Shown here in pieces: positions 22,027 to 41,959 of a stretch of 58,494 nucleotides of DNA. Where the stretch lies: assembly GCA_016700035.1 (NCBI GenBank), contig CP064998.1:857551-916044 (forward strand). Reading direction: 5' to 3'. The position numbers and the translations under genes are program-made. Positions within the stretch are counted from its first letter, which is position 1. Each line of letters opens with the position of its first letter. The DNA comes from a bacterium. GTDB taxonomy: Bacteria > Patescibacteriota > Saccharimonadia > CAILAD01 > GCA-016700035. The notes under the pieces are model-generated. The model was not told the origin of the DNA. It did not search any database and saw nothing but the letters and a program-made list of their open reading frames with translations.

Positions 22027-25000
22027 TTGAACCCCTTAACTAGTCATAAGTTTAGTCGGTTGTCAGGCTCTAAGGCTAAACTTAGTCGAATTATACAGGT
22101 ACGAAGAAAAACATCTCAACGCAACCCAGGCGAGAAAATGTTTATTGCAATTGTGGCCGTAGCGATTGCCGTAATAAGCTTCTTTTATGCTGGACTACTA
22201 AATGATCGTCACGGCGGTAAGGCTTTTAGTGGTACTGGCGATGGAACAATTTTTATTCCTTATGAGATAGCAACTTGTGACCAACTACAGGAAATGCGTG
22301 ATGACCTCGATGCTAACTATGCCCTAGTCGCCAATATCGACTGTACCGCTAGTTCAAGCTGGAACTCGGGTGCAGGCTTTGAGCCAATTGGCACTAGTTC
22401 AAGCCCCTTTATTGGTTCACTTGAGGGCTACAACTTCACAATTAACGGCCTTACTATTAATCGGCCGAGCTCCACTCAGCCGGTGGGTATCTTTGGCCAA
22501 CTCGGCAATACCGCAGATACCCAATCGATTAGCAGGCAATTTGTGCGCTCTGTTCTTATTACTAATCTTTCTATTGTGGGCGGTACGGCAAATACCGGTG
22601 GGTTGGTTGGCCATTCAATAAATGCAGCAATTGAAAAGGTGCAGATTAACTCCGGATCAGTGTCGGCAAATACTTCAACTCAATTTGTTGGATCTGGCAT
22701 TAGCGACAATACTGCTGGTGGGCTAGTGGGCTACTTTGAACTTCAATGCTCTAGTAATCAAAATCACTATTGTCCAAATACAGGGATACGCAACTCCAGC
22801 TACCACGGATCAATCAATAGTGGCAATGTAGCTGGCGGATTGGTTGGTAAGCTAGCGGCCCATAATGAGTACCCAATCATAACAATAAACAATAGCTACG
22901 CTGATGCCACCACCATCCTAACCGGCAGTGGCAATCAGGCCGGTGGCTTAGTCGGTGTAATGGGAGATGGATATTTATCAAATACTTATGCTAGCGGTAG
23001 CATAAGTGATAACCTAGGGAACACTCAAAAAGATATTGGTGGACTAATTGGTCGCGTGGAAGACTGGGTTGGTCAAGATGGCTCATATACATTCGGTGGT
23101 AACTTTAGTTTAACCACTCTAACTGCTGGTGCTGGTGGGGCAATTGGTCGATCGGCCGATCCATCAATTTCTCCTGTAATTTATTTTGATATCAGCAGAA
23201 GTGGATCTAATACATGTAGTTCAACTGGAGCGGGATATGCTGGTTGTATTGGAGTTAATAGTGGTAACAGTCAGCCAAATTATTTCTTTAATAATACATC
23301 TAACTCGCCACTAAATATATTTGACTTTGTAAATATATGGGACACACAAACTAGTGCTGCGCCAAAACATAAAGCCCAAACACCATTCACTACCCCTGAC
23401 GAAGTTACTGCTCTTTATAAATCAGCACAAGATCAGTCATCGGTCACGGTCACTTGGCTGCCACCAGCTAACGATGGTAACTCCGACACTATTGTTACCG
23501 CCGACAACACCCATTATGTAACGGGCTACACGGTCCAATATCGTGCGCAGGGCGATATTAATTGGCTCACCGCCTATCGAAACACTAGTAGCAGTTACTA
23601 CCAAACAGGCACCGGATCTCCAAGTCCCGTACATCATATAACTGGCCTACAACCAAACACCACCTATGAAGTAAGGGTTGCAGCCTTTAGTCCCCTTGGT
23701 CAGAGCACTTGGTCAAATACTATTACAGCCTCAACAGCGCCAAATTTTTCTGGAACTGGAGCTGGCCTACCAACTAATCCATATATAATTACTACCTGCA
23801 ATCAACTGCAAGAAATTAATAATGATCTAGATGCGCACTACGCACTCGGTAATAATATTGACTGTAGCGGTACATCGAGTTGGAATTCTGGTGAAGGATT
23901 TTCTCCGATTGGAGACTATAAGATCATTGGGCCTACCGGATATGCTAGTGGCTTTAGTGGTACACTAGACGGTCGTAATTATACAATTCAGAGCTTGTAC
24001 GTTAATCAGTCGTCGCGAGCGGGTGTTACTGCCTATCCAAATGGCTATTTTTGCTGTTCGCTCATTACTTCATCTGTAGGGCTCTTTGATACTCTTGGAA
24101 GTGCAATAGTTGTTAATCTATCATTCTCTGGTGGATCTTTGGTTGCTGGAAACACAAAGAATGGCACTACTCTAGCCAGTACGATTGCCGGCCATGAAAA
24201 TGGTAGTACCGTTCAAAATATATCATCCAATGCAGATGTCTCGAGTGGCTTCACTACTGGTGGCTTAATTGGTACTGCCACTGGCAACTATGATGCCTCA
24301 ACTAGCTTTTCGTATGGTGGATCTGCTATTCCTGCACCATTCCGAACCACACTAGAACGACTCAGCTTTTCCGGTAATGTTAGCCCTGGTACTATGAGTG
24401 GCTATAAGCCTACTGGGCAAATTATTGGAAATTCACATAGTGTTAAGCTGCGTGACAGCGTAGCATCAGGCACCACCACATGCGGGCAACATGATTACAC
24501 CATCGCATGTGGCGGCATTGTTGGAAACGAATATGACAGTACACTGGAGCGAGTTGCCTTCACCGGTACAATGGGATATTCATCCAGCCCTATTGGATCC
24601 GGCATGATTGGTAGTTATTCAGATACTTACATGGCCGATCAAACAAACATTACCGATAGTTTTTCTTCTGTAACATCAAGTAGTATGATCCCCAAATGCT
24701 CTGGACTCATTTACTATGTTAACCTATTAATTAACCCCCCCATTGTCTCCAATAGCTTCTATAATGGCACTGGTTGCTCGTCGACTGCAACCTATGGAAC
24801 ACGGATTAACTCAACCAGCTACTTCCAGGATAACAGCACTAATCCGCCATTTAATAATTGGGATTTTAACGGTTACTGGCAGCAAAACTCAGCCGCCTAC
24901 CCCACATTAAAATCTCAAGGTATTCCTGGCGCTCCGCTCACTCTATTTGGCAACTGGCAAAATATTAATGACTTCAAATTAAGATGGGTAGTTCAGCAGG

Positions 25001-28000
25001 ATAACGGTGGATCGACTATTACCGATTACTTAGTTGAATATAAGCTCAACTCAGACGTCAACTGGACCACCCTAACACATGCCCCTCTAGGTGGTAATGA
25101 CAATGTGACTGTACCGAATCTTGATGGCACACAAAGTTATGATTTTAGAATTTCTGCTATCAATGCAATAGGCCAGAGTGCACCAACCAGCTATACAGCT
25201 CAGGCCCAAACCAATATTAGCCCTACACCGCCATCCGAACCAATTGGCCTCTTTGGCGAGGGTGTTTCAGTTAGTCAAATACGAATTAGCTGGGCTGAGC
25301 CGATCTCCAACGGTAATTCACCAATTACAAATTACTCTATTCAATATCGCCCCACTCTTGGTGATGGGTCTTGGACAAGCTACGGATATGTTCCGGCCAG
25401 TAGCTTAACACGTATAATCCCCTCGCTAAATACAAATACTAGCTACGACTTTCGTGTCGCTGCAGTCAACGCTATTGGAGTTGGAGCTTGGTCAGACATA
25501 GCTAGTGCAGCCACTAACCCATCGGGTCCACCCATTCCTGACGACCCACCACCCGGGCCAAGTATTGGCACACCACAAAACCTAAATGCCACTCCGCAAA
25601 TCAATAGGGTTGACCTCAACTGGGATGATGTAGTTGGTGCCGATCATTATACGGTCGAATATAAAGTTTCCTCGGATAGCTCTTGGACTGTAGCCAATGA
25701 CGTATACTCATCATCGGCAACAATTTCTGGACTAGCTACTAACACCTCTTATGATTTTCGAGTTGCAGCAATAAATTCCAGTAGCGAACAAGGTGGCTGG
25801 GCTACTACAAATACCACAACACTAACTCAATCCACATATCACATCACCGACTGCGCCGAACTGCAAGGCATTATGATTGATCCCTACACTTTTCAGTCTG
25901 GCGATCTTACTGGCAACTATATCCTTGATAACGATATAGACTGCTCGGAAACCGCCACCTGGACTTGGGATGGACTTGTTCCAGTAGCTCCAGATGAGCC
26001 ACTTGGCTTCCTTGGCATAATGGATATTACGAATGGCCAGCCATTTACTGGGTCTTTTGATGGGCAGGGTCACACAATTTCTAATGTCTATCAAGACTTA
26101 CAGGGCTTGGCACCCTTCTCAGGTATCTTTGCAGCTGTGGCCGGTTCAACAATTGAGAATGTAACATTTTCCAATGCAACCCTTAAAGGCACAACTACAA
26201 ATACTCTTGGGGGCTCTGGTAGTTACGGCTTGGCTCAAAATGCTGGCTTAGTCAATGCTGGAATGGCAGTGGCAATCGAAAATGTTCATTTTACAGGCTT
26301 AGATATGACTACCTATCCAGGAGTCAATGCTGGCTTAGCTGGAATGCTTAGCATGGGATCGATTGTAGAAAATAGTTCCGTAACAGGCACCACAACAACC
26401 GGTGAACCTTATAGGTATGGTAAGCTAAATAGACCATCTGGTATTGCACGAGACACTAATAATAATATCTATGTTGCCGACACCTATAATAGTCGTATCC
26501 AAAAATTTGATAGTAATGGTAATTACCTACTAACCATAGGTAGTCCAAATGCACTAGACTACTATTCTTCAATAGCAGAACCTAGAGATGTCGTAGTTGA
26601 TGCCACCGGCAACATATTTGTCGCTGATACCGATGAGTATAAAATAAAAAAATATGATAGCTCAGGTAGTTATCTATCCCAGTGGGGGGCATATGGCTCA
26701 GGGAATGGTGAGTTCATTTATCCAGCTTCATTGGCTGTTGACAGCTCTGGAAATATATTAGTTGCCGACTCATACAATAGCCGTGTACAAAAATTTGACA
26801 ACAATGGCAATTATATTTCTCAATTTGGATCAATGGGTTCGGGAAATGGCCAATTTGGTAACTATTTATATATTGCAATAGACAATACAAATAACATCTA
26901 TATTGCCGATCAAGACAATAGTCGTATCCAAAAATTTGATAGTAATGGTAATTACCTACTTCAGTTTGGTACTTCTGGAACCAGCAACGGTGAATTTGAA
27001 AATATAAGCAATATAGCTATTACACCCAACGGACACATTTATGCAGTCGATAATGAATATCGCATTCAAGAATTTTTGTCAGATGGTACCTATCTTAATT
27101 CATGGGCCAATCAAGGGCTAGCTGACGGTAGCTTCATAACGATTGGCGATATTGTCATTAACTCAAGTGGACAGATGATAATATCTGACTATGACACAAA
27201 CTATATTCAGAAATTATCAAGCAATGGTAACTTTATCTCTAAGTGGGGTGGATGGGGTAATGTGCCGTATTCCGGAGGGTATATAATCGGTGGGCTTATA
27301 GGTGGTACTGATATAGGGAGCTCCAGTGGAGATGCAACAACCATAAATCAATCCTTTACTGATATAGATATAGATCTAGATGTGCCAGACTTTGTTGGGC
27401 AAAGCATGGTAGGAGGCCTGACTGGCGGTGGTAATCTAGAAATAAATAATACCTACACAAAAGGAGATACTAATGTTGCGATTCAAGATTTAGCTTACTT
27501 TACTGGTGCCGGGGGTATAAGCGGACAAATAGCTCAAGGCTCAATTAATAATTCTTATGCTTCTGGAGCAGTTACGGTTGCTGGTGATAATATTTTCTCA
27601 GGCGTCGGTGGATTGGTTGGCTTTACGTTTGGTGATATTAATAATTCTTTCGCAATGGGAGAAGTTACGGGCTCAACCGATCTTTATGGTTCAGCTGAGG
27701 TTAATCCAGGAGGCCTAATTGGAATAGTAGGCGCCACAGACCAGAATGATCCTTTCCCAACAATCAACAATAACTACTATGATCAATTTAGAAGTACCCA
27801 GCTAGAATGTGTGGGAGTGTATCTATACCTACAAACAGAAATGGAAGGTTCAGCCCCAGCCAATGACTGCTCGACAGTCAATGACAGCAACAACCAGCCC
27901 GACTACTTCTTTAATAATATTATTAATGCACCACTAACCTCATGGGACTTCACGAATATATGGAAAACCAACACCACTTCCCCGCCTGACTTTGTGGGTA

Positions 28001-31000
28001 GCGGAACTCCAGTTGGCCCTACAGCCCCATCTGTACCACAAAATCTAACTACCACCACCATAACCAGCTCCAGTATTGGTGTCCAATGGCAGGCACCAGC
28101 CTCTAACGGAGGGTCAGCCATCACTGATTACGTTATTCAATATAGACTAAGCGGTGGTAATTGGACTACTTTCAATGATGGCATTAATACAAGTCTTAAC
28201 GCCAACATTACCGGATTATCTCAATCTACTAGTTATGATATTCGAGTCGCCGCAATTAACAATGCTGGCCAGAGTAGCTTCACTAGCCCAATTACCGCTA
28301 GTACCAGTAGCAATATACTTCCCTCTGAGCCACGCAATTTAATTGCCACCAATTACCAATATATTGTCCCCTCTTTAGGTGCTGGACCCCTAGTACTACC
28401 TCATCTTAGCTGGGACTCCCCAGCTACTGGATCGCCTTTCACGGATTATGTTATTGAGTTCAAGCTTCAAGGAGAAACAAACTGGCGCAATTATACCGAT
28501 GGCCAATCCACTAGTACGAATCAAGATTTTGAATTTGGATTTGATGGTATGGATTTTCAAAACTCGAACAATAACACCCCCGAACAAAATGCTCTATTTA
28601 ACGAAGTTGTAGATGGAATAATATTTGGTCAAACCTATGAGTTTAGGGTCGCTGGAGTAAATGCCGTTGGGCAAGGGCCATTTACGCAGCCGATTAGCTA
28701 TGTACCCGCATTAACTGCCAGTGATTGCCAATTATTACATGACCTATTGGCAATGTATGGCATAACCAATGATGATATCGCTATTAATCCCCACTTTGTA
28801 CTCTTCCAAGACATAGATTGTTCCGATACCGTGAATTGGAATAGTGGGGCTGGCTGGAGCCCAATCGTCACAACGGAAGACTATTATTTCTCGGGCACAT
28901 TTGATGGCCAAGGACATAGTATAAGCAATATGTTTATCAACAATGACGATGAAGTCCCTGTAGGAATGTTCGGTATCACGATGCATGCCAGTATCGGTAA
29001 CCTCACACTTGATAATAGCAACATTAGTGGAAGCCTATCGCTCTATGGAGATGATGGAGATTCTGGTGCCCGTGTTGGTGCGCTTGTTGGAATAGCGCGA
29101 TCAGATACAGACATATCAGATGTTACGGTCAGTGGGTCTGTTTTCTCTGGTTATGCTGGTGGTGGACTAGTTGGTTACTCAGAGGCATTCGTTGATGATA
29201 CCAATCTAAGCAATATCAACTCTCACGTTAATATTACTTCCAAAAAAGAAACTTACAGTGGTGGGCCGGTAGGCGGCATTATAGGTGAAGTTTATGGTGG
29301 AGATGATAAACTTGGAACTTTCTCAAATAGTGACTTTGAGATTGACTCACTCGGCAATATTTATGCTATAAATACCTCTTCTACCAATAATAAAATCTTA
29401 CAATTTAACCCTAGCGGACAGCTCACATCCTCTTGGGGTACAGCTAACGATTTTGGGTATTATGGCCCAGGCGAAATGACAATGGACTCCAATGACAATC
29501 TTAACTTTCTAGGTATAAAAAAGTTTAGTGGTACCGGTACACCACTCTCTCAATATAATTATTCTGGACAACATCTATATGCTGATCATGCTGGCAACCT
29601 ATACCTAACTGGGTCTACTGACTATTTCTGGAACGGAACTCCTAAGGCTATTCAAAAGATAGGTAGCGATGGCACACTACTTGCCGAATTCTACACTAAA
29701 GATGAGATTCCAGGCCACATCGATGATCAGATTAACGATCTGGCTGTAGCGCCCAATGGAGACATATTCGTTTCTGCAAAATACAATAGTAATGTTCGGC
29801 ACTATAATTCTAATGGTATATTGCTCGGAAGTTTTGAGCTGGGCGGTGCAAATTACGGTAATCGATTAGTAATAGGTCAAGATGGAAAGCTATATGCCTT
29901 TAATTCTATCGGCATTTACAAGTACGACCTAAGTGGTAATCTAGAGCTTACGATACCATCGATTACCTATAGCGATAGTGTATCCGTAGACGAAGATGGC
30001 AATATCTACGTCGCAAGAAGTCAAACCCATGACGTCACTAAATATTCATCAACGGGAACCGTGCTTGGCCTTATTGAGCCTGGATATAGTGCGGGTGCAG
30101 TAATTAGTCCTAATAAACTAATTATCAAAGATAATAATTTATATGTGGCTGATTACTATCAGAGCTATGTTACCGTTAAGGTTTTTGATAAAAATACACT
30201 CACCTATTTACGGAAGATAGACGGAAAAGAAGATAATAATCCGTATAAAGTAAATATCACAAGTAGTTCAGCTGATGGCCACCTAAACGCAAAGTTTGCC
30301 GGTGGTACAGTTGGGATGCAACGTGGCGACTATACACTTATTGATGACCCTAATGAGATACCAGGCCTCGCAATTGAAGGTGTCAACACAAACACATCTA
30401 TTAATAATGACTGCCAGATAGCAGGAGGCATAATTGGTATCGCTCTTGCCGGTACCGATATCAACACATCAAACGCCCAAGGTAACTTCTCTTGTCAGGG
30501 GGGCAACTATCTCGACACCTCAACGCAGGTAAAAATTGCAGTCGGTGGTATTAGCGGGTTCCAAGGTTACTATTCAGCTCTACGCATCTCAAATTCCACA
30601 TTCAATGGAGATATTGCTGCAGTCCCGTACAACAATGATGATAGCACCGTCTATGCTGGTGGCATGGTCGGCATCTCCTCATCAAATATTGGGTACACCT
30701 ATCCTTCCGACATCATACCTGAAGACTACCTAAATAAACGAGGCTTAGTAATTAATGGCGGTTCGGTATCGGCCAATGTTCACGCATCTATAGCTAAAAA
30801 CGGTGGCGGAAGTGGGGGTGCAATCGGTGATGCTGAAAGTGCAGCTTTAAGTGGTGTGACCGTACATGGCAGTGTCCTTACCGATCAGATGGGCCTTCCA
30901 CGCACAACTGGCAGCGAGTATGCTGCTGGGGGCGTAATAGGTAGAAGTAGAATTATTGACATTGAATCAGTAAGTGCTAACAATTCTGTAAACACCTACA

Positions 31001-34000
31001 CCCCTGAAGGAGTTAGTACCATATTTGCCGGTGGCATACTTGGTGTAAGTGATGTATATCAAAACTTCTCTAATGTAACTCGCTCAGGTGACATTACCAT
31101 TGACGGGAGAGCCGATATACCTACTAGTGGCTCTATATCGACTATGGCGGGAGGCGGCTTGATTGGGTCGGCTACTAGTTACGACGAATCAAGATTTGAA
31201 AACAGTACTTCATCAAGCAACATTAGCCTCAATGGGGTTCGCGGAGGAGATCTGAATTATGGCGCACGTGCCGGTAGTGCAGGAGGTTTAATTGGATCAG
31301 CCGAGAGCAGAATAGCTCTAAATATTATCAACAGCTCATCAAGTGGCAATATCATGACTCAATCAGGCCTACCAGACCAAGACTCACACCGCTACTTCTA
31401 TGGATCCGCCTCCCTTGGTGGACTGGTTGGTAGTTTCCGCAGTAGTTTTAATAGCACTGGCGAGATTAATGTTGCCGATTCCCACAGTAGCGCAAGCGTA
31501 TCTGGTCCAGCATTTAGTCTTGGTGGCGCATATGCTGGTCTTGGTGGTGGAAGTGGCGGTCTTGTTGGATTAATTGTATCGGCAAGCGGAGGAAGTATTG
31601 AACGTTCATTCTCAACCGGCAATGTTGATAGTTCTTATGCTGGTGGCCTGGTAGGTAATATCCTAGGTGGTACTACGGTCAACTCTAGCGATAATCTTTT
31701 CACTATAAAAAATACCTATAGTACCAGCGCTGTAACTGCTCAAGATTTTTATATTGATACCGAGTTAGATGGCCAACCCATAAAGGCTGGGTTCTCTGGA
31801 ATTGCTGGTGGATTAATTGGTGGCTCCTCTGGAGTAAATATTGAAAATTCATATTCTTCAGGTATTGTGCGGGCATCTAATGGAGTGGACTATACTGGCT
31901 TTGAAATAAGCTCAACCTATGACCTCATAGGGTCAATGACGCCAAAGGGTAGTATTGCCGGTGGGCTAATCGGCCAATATTCACAAAATTACTATTCAAT
32001 GCTACCTCCAGATTACGATACATTCTATATTGCCAACTCATATATTAAGAACTCCTTTACGACAAGCAAGGTGGAAGGACCCAGTAGCGGCAATAAGGGC
32101 TCACTCGTAGGTATTTTTTATGATTATCTATCAATAGCTCTGCCACTATCTGGCAATGCCATTAATTTAGATCCCAATTTACTTATTACGCCGGAGGAAT
32201 CTCTCGAGAATAATTATTATGATATGAATCGAGTCGACCAGAATGTATGCAGTAATGAATACCTTCTAGTTAGCTTTGATCCACCTGCTACTCAAAATGG
32301 AATGCCAACTAATGTCATTACCGATACTCGTCCAGTAAATGACTGTCAGGTAGTAAATACTGATGGCACACAACCCAACTATTTTATAAATAACCATACT
32401 AATCCGCCTCTCAATGTTTGGGATTTTACGAGCGTCTGGAAAACCAACTACAATACTTATCCTGACTTCATTGGTAGCATTGAACCCCAAACCCCTCCGC
32501 CGCCACCCCCTCCGCCACAACCTCCAGCCCCCTCCCCATCACCGACCTCAACGCCAAGCCCAACCCCTACTCAGTCGCCTAGCTCAACCGTCAGTCCAAG
32601 TAACTCGCCTACGGTCAGCCCTAATGCCGGTGGATCAGGTAGCCATAGCGCCAAACCAACCAGTACTCCAAGCACAACTCAAATTTCTGACAGAGATGGT
32701 AGTCTACTTAAAAAAATAAGTGCCTTCATTGGTGCCTTAGCTCCTAGCGCCCTTATGATTGGAAACAGCTTACTGTTGCTGTTGCTACTATTGGCTATTT
32801 TCTACCTATACCAAAGCTGGCGCGAATACCAAGCCCAAGCACGCCTCAAAAAAATTACAGCCCGCTATCAAACTACTAAACAACTCCGAGACGATTTTAC
32901 AAACATAGCCTCACACTACCTAAATACTCCAATTCAAATTATGCAAGGCAGTGTTGAACTAGCTCGAAACACCCTGCCGACCATGCAATCACAGCTAAAT
33001 AGCCTTGATGCCTCGCTGAGGATTATGGCTGAAGACACCAAGGCGATTCTTAACTCCATCAACGAACCACCTAATCCAATCAGCCACACTATTGAGACCA
33101 CTAAAGTAGATAGTTGGGTTGGGTTGCTACGCAGGCCAGGATTATGGCTACCAATTGTCAGTACTGCCATACTGCTAATAATCTTCGATGTAACCGTCTT
33201 GTTAGTCGGTAAAATGGGTGGCAACCCTTACATACTGGGCATACAAATCTGCTTCTTCATCTTTGTATGTGCAATCCTAATCTTTACCTACCGAGCCAAG
33301 GTCCGCCTAAAGCGATTATCACAACAGGCCGAGTACACCCTAAGCCTAACTCGGTCACTTGATAAAGATAGAATTAATTTTATTAAAACTACCACTCGCC
33401 AGCTTCAAGAAGACCTCGACGCCATCCGCACCTCAGCGCACCGCTTAATAGCCACTGGAAAAGTACCTAATTTTGCCAGTGGACTAGGCATGGCCGAAGG
33501 CACCCTATTAAACCTTAAGCGCATCGAATCCGCCACCGATCAACCAGCCGAAACGCCACCAACCATCATGACACCTTGGCTCGATGAAAACATTCCAAAA
33601 ATTAAAGTCTTTGTAGAGGAGTCAGATTTAGCCTTCGAAGCTCAAACTGATCGTAATATTGCCATTGCGCTGCCAGTCGATAGCCTAGCTCAACTGATAG
33701 GTTCACTCATAGGTAATGCCGTAAAATTCACGCCTAGCGGAGGTAAAGTCACCCTTTCATTAAGTCAAAAGGGAGATAATGCTCATCTTCTTGTAGCCGA
33801 CACCGGGGCTGGCATTGATCCAGAAAAAGCCAAGAGCCTCTTCCAGCCATTCTCGCGCGGAACTAGCTCTCTCACTTATGATTATGAGGGTGCTGGCCTA
33901 TCTCTCTATATTAATAAACTCATAGTGGACCGAGCCGGCGGTACTATCAAAGTAGAATCAAAGCCAAAAAATGGCACTTCAGTACATGTTACACTACCAA

Positions 34001-34014
34001 TCAATAAGCTGTAG
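22027..34014 (+). CDS. giant (3,995-aa) membrane sensor histidine kinase with a ~3,500-aa extracytoplasmic GGLxG-repeat / FN3 / NHL-propeller array
   Basis: One uninterrupted ORF (TTG at 22027 with AAAGGA 8 nt upstream; alternative ATG at 22138). TM1 is at 22138-22200. There are four supermodules, each opening with CxQLQ...DLDAxYAL.NxIDCS...WNSGxGFxPIG. GGLVG/GGLIG repeats are numerous. There are six FN3 domains, two NHL-type repeat blocks and a PST linker. The C-terminus has the H-box FTNIASHYLNTPI plus N, G1, F and G2 boxes. Confidence 0.85.
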   Translation: MNPLTSHKFSRLSGSKAKLSRIIQVRRKTSQRNPGEKMFIAIVAVAIAVISFFYAGLLNDRHGGKAFSGTGDGTIFIPYEIATCDQLQEMRDDLDANYALVANIDCTASSSWNSGAGFEPIGTSSSPFIGSLEGYNFTINGLTINRPSSTQPVGIFGQLGNTADTQSISRQFVRSVLITNLSIVGGTANTGGLVGHSINAAIEKVQINSGSVSANTSTQFVGSGISDNTAGGLVGYFELQCSSNQNHYCPNTGIRNSSYHGSINSGNVAGGLVGKLAAHNEYPIITINNSYADATTILTGSGNQAGGLVGVMGDGYLSNTYASGSISDNLGNTQKDIGGLIGRVEDWVGQDGSYTFGGNFSLTTLTAGAGGAIGRSADPSISPVIYFDISRSGSNTCSSTGAGYAGCIGVNSGNSQPNYFFNNTSNSPLNIFDFVNIWDTQTSAAPKHKAQTPFTTPDEVTALYKSAQDQSSVTVTWLPPANDGNSDTIVTADNTHYVTGYTVQYRAQGDINWLTAYRNTSSSYYQTGTGSPSPVHHITGLQPNTTYEVRVAAFSPLGQSTWSNTITASTAPNFSGTGAGLPTNPYIITTCNQLQEINNDLDAHYALGNNIDCSGTSSWNSGEGFSPIGDYKIIGPTGYASGFSGTLDGRNYTIQSLYVNQSSRAGVTAYPNGYFCCSLITSSVGLFDTLGSAIVVNLSFSGGSLVAGNTKNGTTLASTIAGHENGSTVQNISSNADVSSGFTTGGLIGTATGNYDASTSFSYGGSAIPAPFRTTLERLSFSGNVSPGTMSGYKPTGQIIGNSHSVKLRDSVASGTTTCGQHDYTIACGGIVGNEYDSTLERVAFTGTMGYSSSPIGSGMIGSYSDTYMADQTNITDSFSSVTSSSMIPKCSGLIYYVNLLINPPIVSNSFYNGTGCSSTATYGTRINSTSYFQDNSTNPPFNNWDFNGYWQQNSAAYPTLKSQGIPGAPLTLFGNWQNINDFKLRWVVQQDNGGSTITDYLVEYKLNSDVNWTTLTHAPLGGNDNVTVPNLDGTQSYDFRISAINAIGQSAPTSYTAQAQTNISPTPPSEPIGLFGEGVSVSQIRISWAEPISNGNSPITNYSIQYRPTLGDGSWTSYGYVPASSLTRIIPSLNTNTSYDFRVAAVNAIGVGAWSDIASAATNPSGPPIPDDPPPGPSIGTPQNLNATPQINRVDLNWDDVVGADHYTVEYKVSSDSSWTVANDVYSSSATISGLATNTSYDFRVAAINSSSEQGGWATTNTTTLTQSTYHITDCAELQGIMIDPYTFQSGDLTGNYILDNDIDCSETATWTWDGLVPVAPDEPLGFLGIMDITNGQPFTGSFDGQGHTISNVYQDLQGLAPFSGIFAAVAGSTIENVTFSNATLKGTTTNTLGGSGSYGLAQNAGLVNAGMAVAIENVHFTGLDMTTYPGVNAGLAGMLSMGSIVENSSVTGTTTTGEPYRYGKLNRPSGIARDTNNNIYVADTYNSRIQKFDSNGNYLLTIGSPNALDYYSSIAEPRDVVVDATGNIFVADTDEYKIKKYDSSGSYLSQWGAYGSGNGEFIYPASLAVDSSGNILVADSYNSRVQKFDNNGNYISQFGSMGSGNGQFGNYLYIAIDNTNNIYIADQDNSRIQKFDSNGNYLLQFGTSGTSNGEFENISNIAITPNGHIYAVDNEYRIQEFLSDGTYLNSWANQGLADGSFITIGDIVINSSGQMIISDYDTNYIQKLSSNGNFISKWGGWGNVPYSGGYIIGGLIGGTDIGSSSGDATTINQSFTDIDIDLDVPDFVGQSMVGGLTGGGNLEINNTYTKGDTNVAIQDLAYFTGAGGISGQIAQGSINNSYASGAVTVAGDNIFSGVGGLVGFTFGDINNSFAMGEVTGSTDLYGSAEVNPGGLIGIVGATDQNDPFPTINNNYYDQFRSTQLECVGVYLYLQTEMEGSAPANDCSTVNDSNNQPDYFFNNIINAPLTSWDFTNIWKTNTTSPPDFVGSGTPVGPTAPSVPQNLTTTTITSSSIGVQWQAPASNGGSAITDYVIQYRLSGGNWTTFNDGINTSLNANITGLSQSTSYDIRVAAINNAGQSSFTSPITASTSSNILPSEPRNLIATNYQYIVPSLGAGPLVLPHLSWDSPATGSPFTDYVIEFKLQGETNWRNYTDGQSTSTNQDFEFGFDGMDFQNSNNNTPEQNALFNEVVDGIIFGQTYEFRVAGVNAVGQGPFTQPISYVPALTASDCQLLHDLLAMYGITNDDIAINPHFVLFQDIDCSDTVNWNSGAGWSPIVTTEDYYFSGTFDGQGHSISNMFINNDDEVPVGMFGITMHASIGNLTLDNSNISGSLSLYGDDGDSGARVGALVGIARSDTDISDVTVSGSVFSGYAGGGLVGYSEAFVDDTNLSNINSHVNITSKKETYSGGPVGGIIGEVYGGDDKLGTFSNSDFEIDSLGNIYAINTSSTNNKILQFNPSGQLTSSWGTANDFGYYGPGEMTMDSNDNLNFLGIKKFSGTGTPLSQYNYSGQHLYADHAGNLYLTGSTDYFWNGTPKAIQKIGSDGTLLAEFYTKDEIPGHIDDQINDLAVAPNGDIFVSAKYNSNVRHYNSNGILLGSFELGGANYGNRLVIGQDGKLYAFNSIGIYKYDLSGNLELTIPSITYSDSVSVDEDGNIYVARSQTHDVTKYSSTGTVLGLIEPGYSAGAVISPNKLIIKDNNLYVADYYQSYVTVKVFDKNTLTYLRKIDGKEDNNPYKVNITSSSADGHLNAKFAGGTVGMQRGDYTLIDDPNEIPGLAIEGVNTNTSINNDCQIAGGIIGIALAGTDINTSNAQGNFSCQGGNYLDTSTQVKIAVGGISGFQGYYSALRISNSTFNGDIAAVPYNNDDSTVYAGGMVGISSSNIGYTYPSDIIPEDYLNKRGLVINGGSVSANVHASIAKNGGGSGGAIGDAESAALSGVTVHGSVLTDQMGLPRTTGSEYAAGGVIGRSRIIDIESVSANNSVNTYTPEGVSTIFAGGILGVSDVYQNFSNVTRSGDITIDGRADIPTSGSISTMAGGGLIGSATSYDESRFENSTSSSNISLNGVRGGDLNYGARAGSAGGLIGSAESRIALNIINSSSSGNIMTQSGLPDQDSHRYFYGSASLGGLVGSFRSSFNSTGEINVADSHSSASVSGPAFSLGGAYAGLGGGSGGLVGLIVSASGGSIERSFSTGNVDSSYAGGLVGNILGGTTVNSSDNLFTIKNTYSTSAVTAQDFYIDTELDGQPIKAGFSGIAGGLIGGSSGVNIENSYSSGIVRASNGVDYTGFEISSTYDLIGSMTPKGSIAGGLIGQYSQNYYSMLPPDYDTFYIANSYIKNSFTTSKVEGPSSGNKGSLVGIFYDYLSIALPLSGNAINLDPNLLITPEESLENNYYDMNRVDQNVCSNEYLLVSFDPPATQNGMPTNVITDTRPVNDCQVVNTDGTQPNYFINNHTNPPLNVWDFTSVWKTNYNTYPDFIGSIEPQTPPPPPPPPQPPAPSPSPTSTPSPTPTQSPSSTVSPSNSPTVSPNAGGSGSHSAKPTSTPSTTQISDRDGSLLKKISAFIGALAPSALMIGNSLLLLLLLLAIFYLYQSWREYQAQARLKKITARYQTTKQLRDDFTNIASHYLNTPIQIMQGSVELARNTLPTMQSQLNSLDASLRIMAEDTKAILNSINEPPNPISHTIETTKVDSWVGLLRRPGLWLPIVSTAILLIIFDVTVLLVGKMGGNPYILGIQICFFIFVCAILIFTYRAKVRLKRLSQQAEYTLSLTRSLDKDRINFIKTTTRQLQEDLDAIRTSAHRLIATGKVPNFASGLGMAEGTLLNLKRIESATDQPAETPPTIMTPWLDENIPKIKVFVEESDLAFEAQTDRNIAIALPVDSLAQLIGSLIGNAVKFTPSGGKVTLSLSQKGDNAHLLVADTGAGIDPEKAKSLFQPFSRGTSSLTYDYEGAGLSLYINKLIVDRAGGTIKVESKPKNGTSVHVTLPINKL
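26400..27255 (+). other. NHL-repeat beta-propeller block 1 within the giant ORF
   Basis: About 7 units of the type NNIYVADTYNSRIQKFDSNGNYLLTIGS...G.GNGEF. Two units share 44 identical nt (26488-26531 and 26917-26960). Confidence 0.8.
29320..30200 (+). other. second, more divergent NHL/YVTN-like propeller block within the giant ORF
   Basis: Repeated G(N)IY(V)A..... patterns: DSLGNIYAIN, HAGNLYLTG, APNGDIFVSAKYNSNVRHYNSNG, GQDGKLYAFN, DEDGNIYVARSQTHDVTKYSSTG, DNNLYVADYY. Confidence 0.6.
32485..32700 (+). other. Pro/Ser/Thr-rich low-complexity linker preceding TM2 of the giant ORF
   Basis: Translation PQTPPPPPPPPQPPAPSPSPTSTPSPTPTQSPSSTVSPSNSPTVSPN..., followed at 32720-32815 by a hydrophobic helix (LLLLLLLLAIFYLY). 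Confidence 0.85.
32890..34011 (+). other. histidine-kinase core of the giant ORF: DHp with H-box, TM hairpin, degenerate second DHp, HATPase_c
   Basis: His codon at 32914-32916 (aa 3630) in SHYLNTPI. Two TM helices at ~33140-33295. FIKTTTRQLQEDLDAI at ~33371-33425 looks like an H-box without the His. N box GNAVKFTPSGG at ~33710, G1 DTGAGI at ~33800, F box FQPFSRG, G2 GAGLSL at ~33890. Confidence 0.8.
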
Positions 34015-40350: not shown

Positions 40351-40386
40351 CACGGGGACCGATCTACCTCTGTCGATCACTTGCTT

Positions 40387-40404
40387 TGGCTCCGGGGGCC
40401 GGAT
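40387..40404 (-). repeat. 18-nt exact duplicate of the tRNA-Asn 3' end (att-like scar)
   Basis: tggctccgggggccggat occurs at 40387-40404 and again at 40507-40524 (acceptor 3' strand, CCA and part of the T arm of the tRNA). Confidence 0.85.
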
Positions 40405-40468
40405 AGCGGGCTTTGCCCTTCTTCACTTTGCTACTACGAACCTCCGGTTTGATTCTGCTCCGCAGAAG

Positions 40469-40509
40469 CCATGGAAAAAGCCAGACCGTTGGTCTGGCTT
40501 TTTCCATGG
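40469..40509. terminator. bidirectional rho-independent terminator hairpin abutting the tRNA 3' end
   Basis: Perfect 19-bp inverted repeat ccatggaaaaagccagacc gtt ggtctggctttttccatgg. The GC core gccagacc/ggtctggc has an A-run on one side and a T-run on the other. Confidence 0.75.
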
Positions 40510-40815
40510 CTCCGGGGGCCGGATTCGAACCGGCGGCCAATTGGTTACACCTGCCTCATATTTTCATACAAGAGTGGACTATCTCATCATCCATTATGGA
40601 TGCAGGGCGCTATCTGAGAGATTATTGTTGGGCTCACTCTCTAGTCTCTGAACCTTCCGAGAACCTTTATCCCATTCTCGGCTTGGCTGCGGATTACCAT
40701 ATCCTACAACTCTCTTTGGACGTAGGCTTCCCGCAATTCACCCTGTTTTCACTACTTAATTACTTAAGTAGGCTGCCTTTAACAGCCAACTGCTCTACCG
40801 CTGAGCTACCCCGGA
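40507..40815 (-). tRNA. tRNA-Asn(GUU) interrupted by a group I intron in the anticodon loop
   Basis: The exons (40815-40782 and 40547-40507) join to UCCGGGG UA GCUC AGCGGUA GAGC A GUUGG CUGUUAA CCAAU UGGCC GCCGG UUCGAAU CCGGC CCCCGGA G CCA. This gives a perfect 7-bp acceptor stem, a 4-bp D stem, 5-bp anticodon and T stems, U1-A72 and G73 as in E. coli tRNA-Asn, and an encoded CCA. Confidence 0.9.
40548..40781 (-). ncRNA. group I self-splicing intron, 234 nt, no ORF
   Basis: All four classical conserved elements are present on the minus strand: P gaauugcgggaag (~40727-40739), Q aauccgcagcc (40685-40695), R guucagagacua (40642-40653), S gagauagucc (40576-40585). P1 pairs exon GGCUGU with guide GGCAGCC, with U.G at the 5' splice site. 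The intron ends in G. P2 has a GUAA loop and P9 a GAAA loop. Confidence 0.85.
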
Positions 40816-40915
40816 TTATTTGGTACATCTTTTATTTACGAAAGACTGACATATTATACCTGTCAACAGATGTAGCGTCAACGTCGGTCACTCGCCAACT
40901 GAACCCAGGCGCGCT

Positions 40916-41959
40916 ATGCTACTAATAATGAAAAAACCACCCGTCAAACTAACTTGGCTGGCCTATACCCTACCTATCATCGCATCGATACTGGGATTTA
41001 TTTTTATGATTAGCATGATATGCATGGTAATTTTTTATGTGCGTCACAAAGATGAGCCCGAAACGATTGGTGTTAGCTTCTCACAAGTTCAGGCTGATCG
41101 TTTTGGCATAGATTGGCGTAAGGCCTACACCGCAACTCTTGATGAGTTAGGTTTTAGACACATCCGGGTTGCAACTTATTGGGATAGGATAGAAAAAACT
41201 CCCGGTAACTATGATTTTTCGGAACTTGATTTTATGGTTGCGGAAGCTGAAAAACGGAATGCGAAAATAAAGTTAGTTTTAGGTCAAAAAGTAATCCGTT
41301 GGCCAGAATGTTTTTACCCCACCTGGCTTGATAAAAATAATTCAGGCCTGGTAGCTGAAAAAACTAATGCCTTAATTACTGCTACGGTAAATCGTTATAA
41401 AAATAGCCCAGCCATTGAAACTTGGCAGGTTGAAAATGAGTTTTTGCTCAAAACTTTTGGGGAATGCCCAAAACAAAACCTCACCAACCAAGCCTTAGCT
41501 CGTGAAATAGAGACGGTTCGCGCCATCGACTCCACTCACCCAATTGAACTCACGCAATCTAATCAAAATGGCTTCCCTGCCTTCGGCCCAAACACCGAAA
41601 CATTTGGCTTTTCGATGTATCGAGTGGTGCATAATAATGTGTTTGGTTACTACACCTACCCACAAACCGGGATTTACACCTGGTGGAAAGCATCATTAAT
41701 TGAAGCCTATCGGAATACTCGCGTGACCATTCATGAACTTCAGGGCGAAGCCTGGGGATCCAAAGGTAATGAAGACTTAAGCTGGGAGGAGGCTCAGCGT
41801 TCAATGAATCCCGACCAACTACGAGACAATTTAGCTTATGCTCGCTCGGCTCAAATAAAAACTATGTATTTATGGGGTGCTGAGTGGTGGTACTGGCTAA
41901 AACATAGCCAAAACCAGCCCGAAATGTGGGAGGCTGTTCGGGCTGAGCTGGCTCGCTAA
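40916..41959 (+). CDS. membrane-anchored clan GH-A (TIM-barrel) glycoside hydrolase, family uncertain
   Basis: N-terminal TM. RVATYWDRIEKTPGNYDFSELD and the acid/base-type motif WQVENEF. The start may be the second ATG at 40928. Confidence 0.65.
   Translation: MLLIMKKPPVKLTWLAYTLPIIASILGFIFMISMICMVIFYVRHKDEPETIGVSFSQVQADRFGIDWRKAYTATLDELGFRHIRVATYWDRIEKTPGNYDFSELDFMVAEAEKRNAKIKLVLGQKVIRWPECFYPTWLDKNNSGLVAEKTNALITATVNRYKNSPAIETWQVENEFLLKTFGECPKQNLTNQALAREIETVRAIDSTHPIELTQSNQNGFPAFGPNTETFGFSMYRVVHNNVFGYYTYPQTGIYTWWKASLIEAYRNTRVTIHELQGEAWGSKGNEDLSWEEAQRSMNPDQLRDNLAYARSAQIKTMYLWGAEWWYWLKHSQNQPEMWEAVRAELAR

Follow-up and report, generated by a model that had tools for sequence, protein, structure and literature searches.

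The tRNA-Asn(GUU) locus and its flanks

The window (the whole 58,494-nt stretch of DNA analyzed here) lies close to the replication origin of a bacterial chromosome; dnaA, dnaN and recF are located at 48.4-52.4 kb. Its minus strand carries a tRNA-Asn(GUU) gene that is interrupted by a group I intron, and the gene is flanked by promoter-like and terminator-like sequences. The locus is made up of the following features.

40815..40507, minus strand: tRNA-Asn(GUU) gene split by a group I intron (Rfam, in-silico splicing and ARAGORN)
40782..40815, minus strand: 5' exon of tRNA-Asn(GUU), containing the acceptor strand, the D arm, the 5' side of the anticodon stem and loop nucleotides C32-U35 (in-silico splicing and ARAGORN)
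40548..40781, minus strand: group I intron of 234 nt, with no ORF (RF00028, leave-one-out HMM and covariation)
40507..40547, minus strand: 3' exon of tRNA-Asn, containing U36, A37, A38, the 3' side of the anticodon stem, the variable loop, the T arm, the acceptor strand, G73 and CCA (ARAGORN on the joined exons; uninterrupted alleles)
40853..40881, minus strand: putative sigma-70-like promoter, TTGACG-17 nt-TATAAT (consensus scan, 11/12 matches)
40469..40509, minus strand: perfect 19-bp hairpin, -32 kcal/mol (RNAfold)

Intron_gpI (RF00028) was the sole Rfam family above threshold in the 58-kb window, with a match at 40793..40555 on the minus strand that scored 93.8 bits (E 6.9e-23), against a gathering cut-off of 50 bits, and that extended over model positions 1-253 of 253. 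In its default mode, ARAGORN reported no tRNA anywhere in the window. Excision of 40781..40548 joins 40815..40782 to 40547..40507 and yields a 75-nt cloverleaf, which ARAGORN called as tRNA-Asn(GUU), with U1-A72, G73 and an encoded CCA; U1-A72 and G73 fit the identity pattern of tRNA-Asn, as in the E. coli molecule. An earlier note, made from the letters alone, had proposed a group I intron in tRNA-Asn(GUU) at this place, and the Rfam match and the spliced product agree with it on the kind of intron, the identity of the exons, the coordinates and the 234-nt length.

Between the end of the promoter-like site and the 5' end of the tRNA downstream of it are about 38 nt. The 19-bp hairpin begins on the encoded CCA and has a G+C-rich inner stem followed by UUUUU; it is a probable terminator, and a simple terminator scan of the sequence did not call it. 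The 521-nt region containing the tRNA gene, the intron and the flanks (40380-40900) is 100% identical in another strain (L367), which has 98.9% identity with the window over 5.2 kb, and four further contigs are identical over the parts of this region that they cover. All five contigs come from other samples, and carriers of the same sequence include runs SRR14932662 and SRR14932695 and assembly GCA_041910035.1.

The surrounding DNA has additional features of its own. The 18 nt at the 3' end of the tRNA (AUCCGGCCCCCGGAGCCA, 40507-40524) recur as an exact copy 120 nt downstream, at 40387-40404 on the minus strand (chance expectation 0.01). Two contigs (L365 and L366, from Logan SRR14932662 and SRR14932695) match the window at ~100% identity starting at the 3' end of the tRNA (40507) and going rightwards, and to the left of 40507 a gene for a 519-aa large serine recombinase (Resolvase/Recombinase/Zn_ribbon) replaces the window's spacer and NHL-repeat gene. 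Given the 18-nt repeat and the recombinase next to 40507 in these two contigs, the 3' end of tRNA-Asn looks like a strain-variable integration site, and the repeat in the window may be an att scar. Antisense to the tRNA and intron are ORFs of 170 aa (window 40413-40925, plus strand), 109 aa (L365 2681-3010) and 139 aa (L367 2591-3010), none of which had a Pfam match. The 109- and 139-aa ORFs have been called as proteins in other assemblies, and the antisense ORFs are almost certainly spurious calls that stem from the unannotated split tRNA. Elsewhere in the window, positions 22027-34014 on the plus strand form a single 3,995-aa ORF with a TTG start.

Structure and splice sites of the intron

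We scanned one genome per GTDB species with a degenerate core pattern (AGAGACUA ... AGCGCC ... GAGAUAGUCC) and obtained matches at at least 120 loci. Of the 120 matches listed, 50 lie in tRNA-Asn(GUU) at the site between anticodon nucleotides 35 and 36; other hosts among the matches listed are CAU-anticodon tRNAs (position 5), tRNA-Phe (2), tRNA-Leu(UAA) (2) and tRNA-Tyr (4). By record title, the tRNA-Asn introns listed come from about 20 differently named lineages, including Cyanobacteria, Acidobacteriota, Nitrospirota, Binatia, Aminicenantes, 'Eubacteriales', Elusimicrobia, Rokubacteria, Chloroflexi, Planctomycetes, Actinomycetota, Bacteroidota, Proteobacteria and Margulisbacteria, as well as several CPR lineages (Saccharibacteria, Paceibacterota, Peribacteria and Peregrinibacteria). 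The closest relatives of the window intron among the matches listed are in Saccharibacteria MAGs, with 76-78% intron identity and near-identical exons. These relatives (L034 and L112), along with synteny of the glycoside-hydrolase-like gene beside the tRNA, make a Saccharibacteria-like source probable and a CPR organism with a small genome plausible. Intron-split tRNA-Asn also appeared in assemblies labelled 'Woesearchaeota archaeon' (L069) and 'Klebsiella pneumoniae' MAG (L118); these contigs are probably mis-binned or mislabelled, as is also suspected of an 'archaeal' match in Williams 2020 (bioRxiv 10.1101/2020.01.27.920355).

The 50 tRNA-Asn introns were aligned with that of the window (alignment A1; 51 sequences, 506 columns). 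When a structure written from the window sequence, itself one of those aligned, was tested on A1, 93.1% of cells fell in standard pairs, versus 34-42% when the 3' partners were slid by 1-3 columns, and 44/67 pairs had compensatory changes on both sides; none of 500 shuffles attained the observed value on any measure. Nearly every pair covaries in P2, P6a, P8 and P9, and P3, P4, P5 and P6 covary wherever they are variable. A profile HMM trained on the 50 other tRNA-Asn introns, with the window left out, gave a single match in the window, spanning positions 2-267 of 268 (E 4.9e-47). The training set of this HMM holds copies 93-97% identical to Pam37, the published seed of class Asn.4Ug, and the match thus amounts to sequence homology with that class. 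The elements of the folded intron are listed below, in order from the 5' splice site.

40787..40782, minus strand: 5' strand of P1, GGCUGU, the last six nucleotides of the 5' exon
40781..40777, minus strand: L1, UAAAG
40771..40776, minus strand: internal guide sequence GCAGCC, the 3' strand of P1 (GCAGC invariant in the alignment)
40752..40771, minus strand: P2, 8 bp, with GUAA tetraloop L2 (compensatory changes in 7/7 tested pairs)
40739..40745, minus strand: 5' strand of P3, CAGGGUG, with its partner CGCCCUG at 40609..40603
40688..40735, minus strand: P4-P5-P5a domain (P4 98% paired and P5 100% paired, both covarying)
40652..40687, minus strand: P6 (GCC/GGU) and the P6a hairpin (CCGAGAA/UUCUCGG), with covariation
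40642..40648, minus strand: 5' strand of P7, G-A(bulge)-GACUA, the R element (Rfam alignment)
40616..40641, minus strand: P7.1-type hairpin of 26 nt between P7 and P3', GAGAG / UGAGCCCAACAAUAAU / CUCUC
40588..40602, minus strand: P8 hairpin, CAUCC-AUAAU-GGAUG (97% paired, 4/5 pairs covary)
40549..40575, minus strand: P9.0 and P9, with AC (40575..40574) pairing with GU (40550..40549) and enclosing P9

At the 5' splice site, the CUGU that ends the 5' exon is unchanged in 51/51 homologues, and G40776 lies opposite U35 to form the splice-site wobble, which is U·G in 51/51 sequences. In P3, 100% of cells are paired and three pairs have double changes, with part of the 3' strand set by the search pattern. 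P4 is UGCGGG/UCCGCA, and P5 (CCUACG...UAUGG) is one base off the 11-nt GAAA-tetraloop receptor (CCUAAG...UAUGG), the canonical form of which is held by several homologues. Because L9 is GAAA and P5 is this close to the receptor, a contact between L9 and P5 like that of Azoarcus-type introns is likely. P6 is 99% paired and includes a C-G to G-C exchange, and all 7/7 pairs of P6a covary. P7, the guanosine-binding helix, is completed by UAGUCC (the S element) at 40581..40576, and its invariance is uninformative in that its columns were set by the search pattern. P9 has 7 bp and a GAAA tetraloop and is 97% paired. The 2-bp P9.0, in which the dinucleotide that directly precedes the terminal G pairs with the one that directly follows the 3' strand of P7, is 100% paired, with AU and GC at one position and CG, AU, GC, UA and UG at the other. 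A minimum-free-energy fold computed without a prior recovered P1, P2, P3, P4, P5, P6a, P8 and P9 (z -2.57). By eye, we found no convincing P10, as the 3' exon UAAC and the L1 UAAAG offer one or two pairs at most, and alignment of the exons would therefore have to use the anticodon stem, whose G30 and G31 are contested between that stem and P1. A requirement for the anticodon stem was reportedly described for Anabaena pre-tRNA-Leu by Zaug et al. 1993 (cited in PMC3984707).

In its intron mode (-i), ARAGORN called a different product from the same locus, a tRNA-Thr(UGU) with a 234-nt intron whose splice sites lie 2 nt upstream. That register resembles the tRNA-Asn register in having a U ahead of the 5' site and an intron that ends in G, but the U would face A in P1 rather than G. 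The P9.0 pairing, which covaries over the 51 introns and lies next to the terminal G, fixes G40548 as omega-G, and in about half of the homologues the U/G rule (U as the last nucleotide of the 5' exon, G as that of the intron) is satisfied by the Asn register alone. Uninterrupted genes that share the 5' half read ...GGCUGU-UAACC..., with CUGUUAA running through the junction. Moreover, comparison of introns without the initial U (L034, L112 and others) with uninterrupted genes that have identical exons (L245, L246, L252 and others) makes the junction between U35 and U36 unambiguous. The tRNA-Thr(UGU) product was set aside on the strength of the U·G rule, the P9.0 covariation and the intronless alleles, and with U1-A72 and G73 also agreeing with the tRNA-Asn pattern of E. 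coli, we give it next to no credence.

The splice sites of the tRNA-Asn register are those that the earlier note had deduced from the U/G rule. A P1 helix is present as it proposed (here GGCUGU/GCAGCC), the U·G wobble that it placed there recurs in all 51 aligned sequences, its terminal G is the G40548 now anchored by P9.0, and its insertion point between anticodon nucleotides 35 and 36 is confirmed by the intronless alleles. P2-P9, P9.0 and the extra hairpin between P7 and P3', most of which it had also described, are all intact in the window copy. The host tRNA-Asn(GUU), the canonical tRNA formed on joining of the exons, the 35/36 site, U-1 and omega-G together place the intron in class Asn.4Ug.

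Mobility, splicing and alternative readings

A scan of contigs from metagenomes for the 5' half of this tRNA-Asn found at least 120 loci; among the matches listed, about 99 are uninterrupted, 17 are interrupted and 4 are incomplete. The same exons are found in interrupted and in uninterrupted genes. A glycoside-hydrolase-like gene, which lies at 40916-41959 in the window, adjoins tRNA-Asn in four intronless contigs (L259, L266, L274 and L328) and likewise in four that bear the intron (L301, L311, L334 and L342), and its presence beside both kinds of allele points to gain or loss of the intron at an orthologous locus. Two of the introns are longer (597 nt in L297 and 539 nt in L313) and contain, in L1, an HNH-type ORF of 107-121 aa with a C..C/HH/CANCH motif; against the Pfam HNH cut-off of 21.4, the L297 ORF scored above (22.4 bits) and the L313 ORF below (16.7 bits). 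The window intron has no ORF that could encode a homing endonuclease, and the window copy is presumably immobile by itself. Judged by these relatives and by the alleles with and without it, the intron belongs to a mobile lineage. Long insertions in L1 of three A1 introns (L063, L073 and L085) resemble remnants of HNH ORFs.

The features of the locus suggest the following course of events. Transcription would start at the promoter-like site (40881..40853) and stop at the hairpin past the CCA. In the precursor, C32-U35 together with G30 and G31 would pair with the guide GCAGCC to form P1, placing U35 opposite G, and the P3-P8 and P4-P6 domains would assemble, with the P7.1 hairpin and a contact of the L9 GAAA with the receptor-like P5 probably bracing them. 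A free guanosine bound in P7 would attack after U35. P9.0 would then bring the terminal G, G40548, into the guanosine site, U35 would attack after this G with its 3' hydroxyl, and ligation of the exons would produce the 75-nt tRNA-Asn.

A different interpretation is that the locus is a relic whose intron has lost the ability to splice, the cell being supplied by another tRNA-Asn gene, without an intron, elsewhere in the genome. The genome probably measures about 0.9 Mb, of which the window covers 58 kb, and this leaves room for such a gene. Against a relic, the window copy preserves all core helices as well as the U·G pair, the terminal G and P9.0, the leave-one-out HMM match is full-length, there are zero substitutions among strains in the tRNA and intron region, and promoter-like and terminator-like signals stand on either side of the gene. 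Relatives also keep tRNA-Asn, with or without the intron, at the syntenic locus by the glycoside-hydrolase-like gene, and we regard a relic as highly unlikely. It is also conceivable that the intron is functional but not autonomous in vivo, either needing a host protein or chaperone or splicing conditionally in a way that regulates the supply of tRNA-Asn. The weak or absent P10 and the competition between the anticodon stem and P1 would fit such dependence, and there are other group I introns that are known to splice with the help of proteins (review PMC3984707). The sequence offers no sign of a cofactor, however, and the compact core with its tetraloop and receptor elements resembles that of introns that splice unaided, such as those of Azoarcus and Anabaena. 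Dependence on a helper or a condition seems unlikely for the window intron.

Together, these data indicate that the group I intron in tRNA-Asn(GUU) is genuine and intact, and we put at about 0.88 the probability that the feature as a whole is an intact tRNA-Asn(GUU) gene split between U35 and U36 by a 234-nt, ORF-less group I ribozyme. The intron is very probably functional; its transcription, its catalysis and the dependence of the organism on splicing for tRNA-Asn are what we infer from the sequence.

The value of this example is mainly practical, and it raises no new biological question, since introns of this kind are widespread and their class, insertion site and hairpin have all been described before. 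Split tRNA genes of this kind are missed by standard tRNA finders, and a genome like that of the window would be scored as lacking tRNA-Asn as a result, while spurious "hypothetical proteins" arise on the opposite strand at such loci. The compact 234-nt locus is a clean example for tests of Asn.4Ug splicing.

Relation to known group I introns

According to Williams 2020, a search of 80,413 bacterial genomes raised the number of intron-split tRNA classes from 4 (the classical Leu.3Ug, Arg.5Ug, fMet.2Ug and Ile2.5Ug) to 21, and the seed alignment includes Pam37.Asn.4Ug, with the same site and hairpin as the window. The same source gives 0.49 interrupted tRNA genes per genome for metagenomic assemblies of unnamed phyla, a frequency second only to that of cyanobacteria. 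The literature that we searched contained no report of a splicing assay on a tRNA-Asn intron; what was returned on tRNA-Asn group I introns was otherwise on organelles or unrelated, and no paper turned up under the accessions of the related assemblies and runs. 'Group I introns' of 22-49 nt have been described in cyanobacterial tRNAs, Asn not included (PMC5733544); these are too short for group I ribozymes. The earlier note had considered an Asn host and a CPR genome to be unusual and had pointed out that the 35/36 insertion point differs from that in tRNA-Leu. None of the three is unusual, given the catalogue and the lineage spread of Asn introns: the 21 published classes include Asn.4Ug, Pam37.Asn.4Ug and 50 of the 120 matches listed share both host and site with the window, four CPR lineages are among the matches listed, and the unnamed-phylum assemblies are, in Williams 2020, rich in split tRNAs. 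The class has been catalogued since 2020 and is widespread, and the window intron is one more member.

The hairpin between P7 and P3', with its loop motif (UGAG..CC.AAC.AAUAA), also occurs in the Williams seeds Asn.4Ug, Phe.2Ug, Lys.2Ug and Leu.1Ug. It is present in most tRNA-Asn homologues of A1, some of which have a two-hairpin form (of the 'GAGC....GCUCGUAC' type), and in introns on viral contigs (e.g., GCUGG-UGAGUCCCAACAAUAAG-CCAGC in L135), where some P7.1 loops are almost identical. Because it is common to the Williams seeds, the Asn homologues and the viral-contig introns, the window hairpin is a P7.1-type peripheral element that is not peculiar to the window intron. Elements of this type are among the features that define group I subclasses (review PMC3984707).

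A scan of IMG/VR with the same core pattern gave at least 120 viral loci, and of the 120 listed, 4 are within tRNA genes. The viral loci (L125-L244) combine the core signature with a P7.1-type hairpin almost always outside tRNA genes. On their 3' side, many of the viral copies have a coding-like sequence that is conserved (...GAAYGAYTTTCCNAAG...), pointing to a single protein gene as their recurrent target.

With respect to subgroup, the hairpin at 40641..40616 sets the window intron apart from IC3, which has no extra pairing between P7 and P3'. For IA, which is marked by P7.1 together with P7.1a or P7.2, the window has one hairpin, and two are seen in some members of the family. When the intron was compared with 50,697 phage records by BLASTN, the sole match was to a 65-nt stretch of core in Brochothrix phages, which is uninformative on subgroup. 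One possible reading, which we hold only tentatively and consider doubtful, is that the P7.1-bearing lineage constitutes a separate, unnamed subgroup apart from IC3 that extends across phage protein genes and at least five tRNA anticodon loops (in Asn, CAU-anticodon tRNAs, Phe, Leu and Tyr) in many phyla and is spread by an HNH endonuclease encoded in L1. If it were true, small genomes with a single tRNA-Asn gene would rely on such a ribozyme for all Asn decoding.

The window intron shares several features with the classical tRNA introns, which are classed as IC3 in Williams 2020 and are found in tRNA-Leu(UAA) of cyanobacteria and plastids, tRNA-Ile(CAU) of Azoarcus, tRNA-Arg(CCU) of Agrobacterium and tRNA-fMet. 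Like them, it is located in the anticodon loop, forms P1 from anticodon loop and stem nucleotides, is small, has a GNRA L2 and an L9 GAAA with a receptor-like P5, and lacks an ORF, as most of them do. It differs from them in its insertion point (4 in the Williams numbering, versus 3 for Leu, 5 for Arg and Ile, and 2 for fMet), in the presence of a hairpin between P7 and P3', which the classical introns lack in the Williams alignment, in J3/4 (AAU rather than AAAU) and J8/7 (AUGAGA rather than AAGGGA), and in its P9 region, which is less elaborate than theirs. With the IA-type introns of phages and bacteria (e.g., in phage protein genes and tmRNA), it shares the extra pairing between P7 and P3', but IA-type introns have a P7.1 and P7.2 pair whereas the window has a single hairpin. 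The introns with the same core signature on at least 120 viral contigs are in mostly non-tRNA contexts, in contrast to that of the window, which is in a tRNA gene.

The closest counterpart is Asn.4Ug itself, whose seed (Pam37.Asn.4Ug) shares 93-97% identity with three A1 introns from cyanobacteria. The seed and the window intron have in common the host tRNA, the anticodon, the site after the fourth anticodon-loop nucleotide (35/36), U-1 and omega-G, the core motifs GGGUGAAUU..., AGAGACUA, AGCGCCC and AUGAGAUAGUCC, the P7-P3' hairpin with an AAUAA-containing loop, and a short P9 with a GAAA loop. The two differ in sequence only, with the P7.1 loop of the window being the shorter form.
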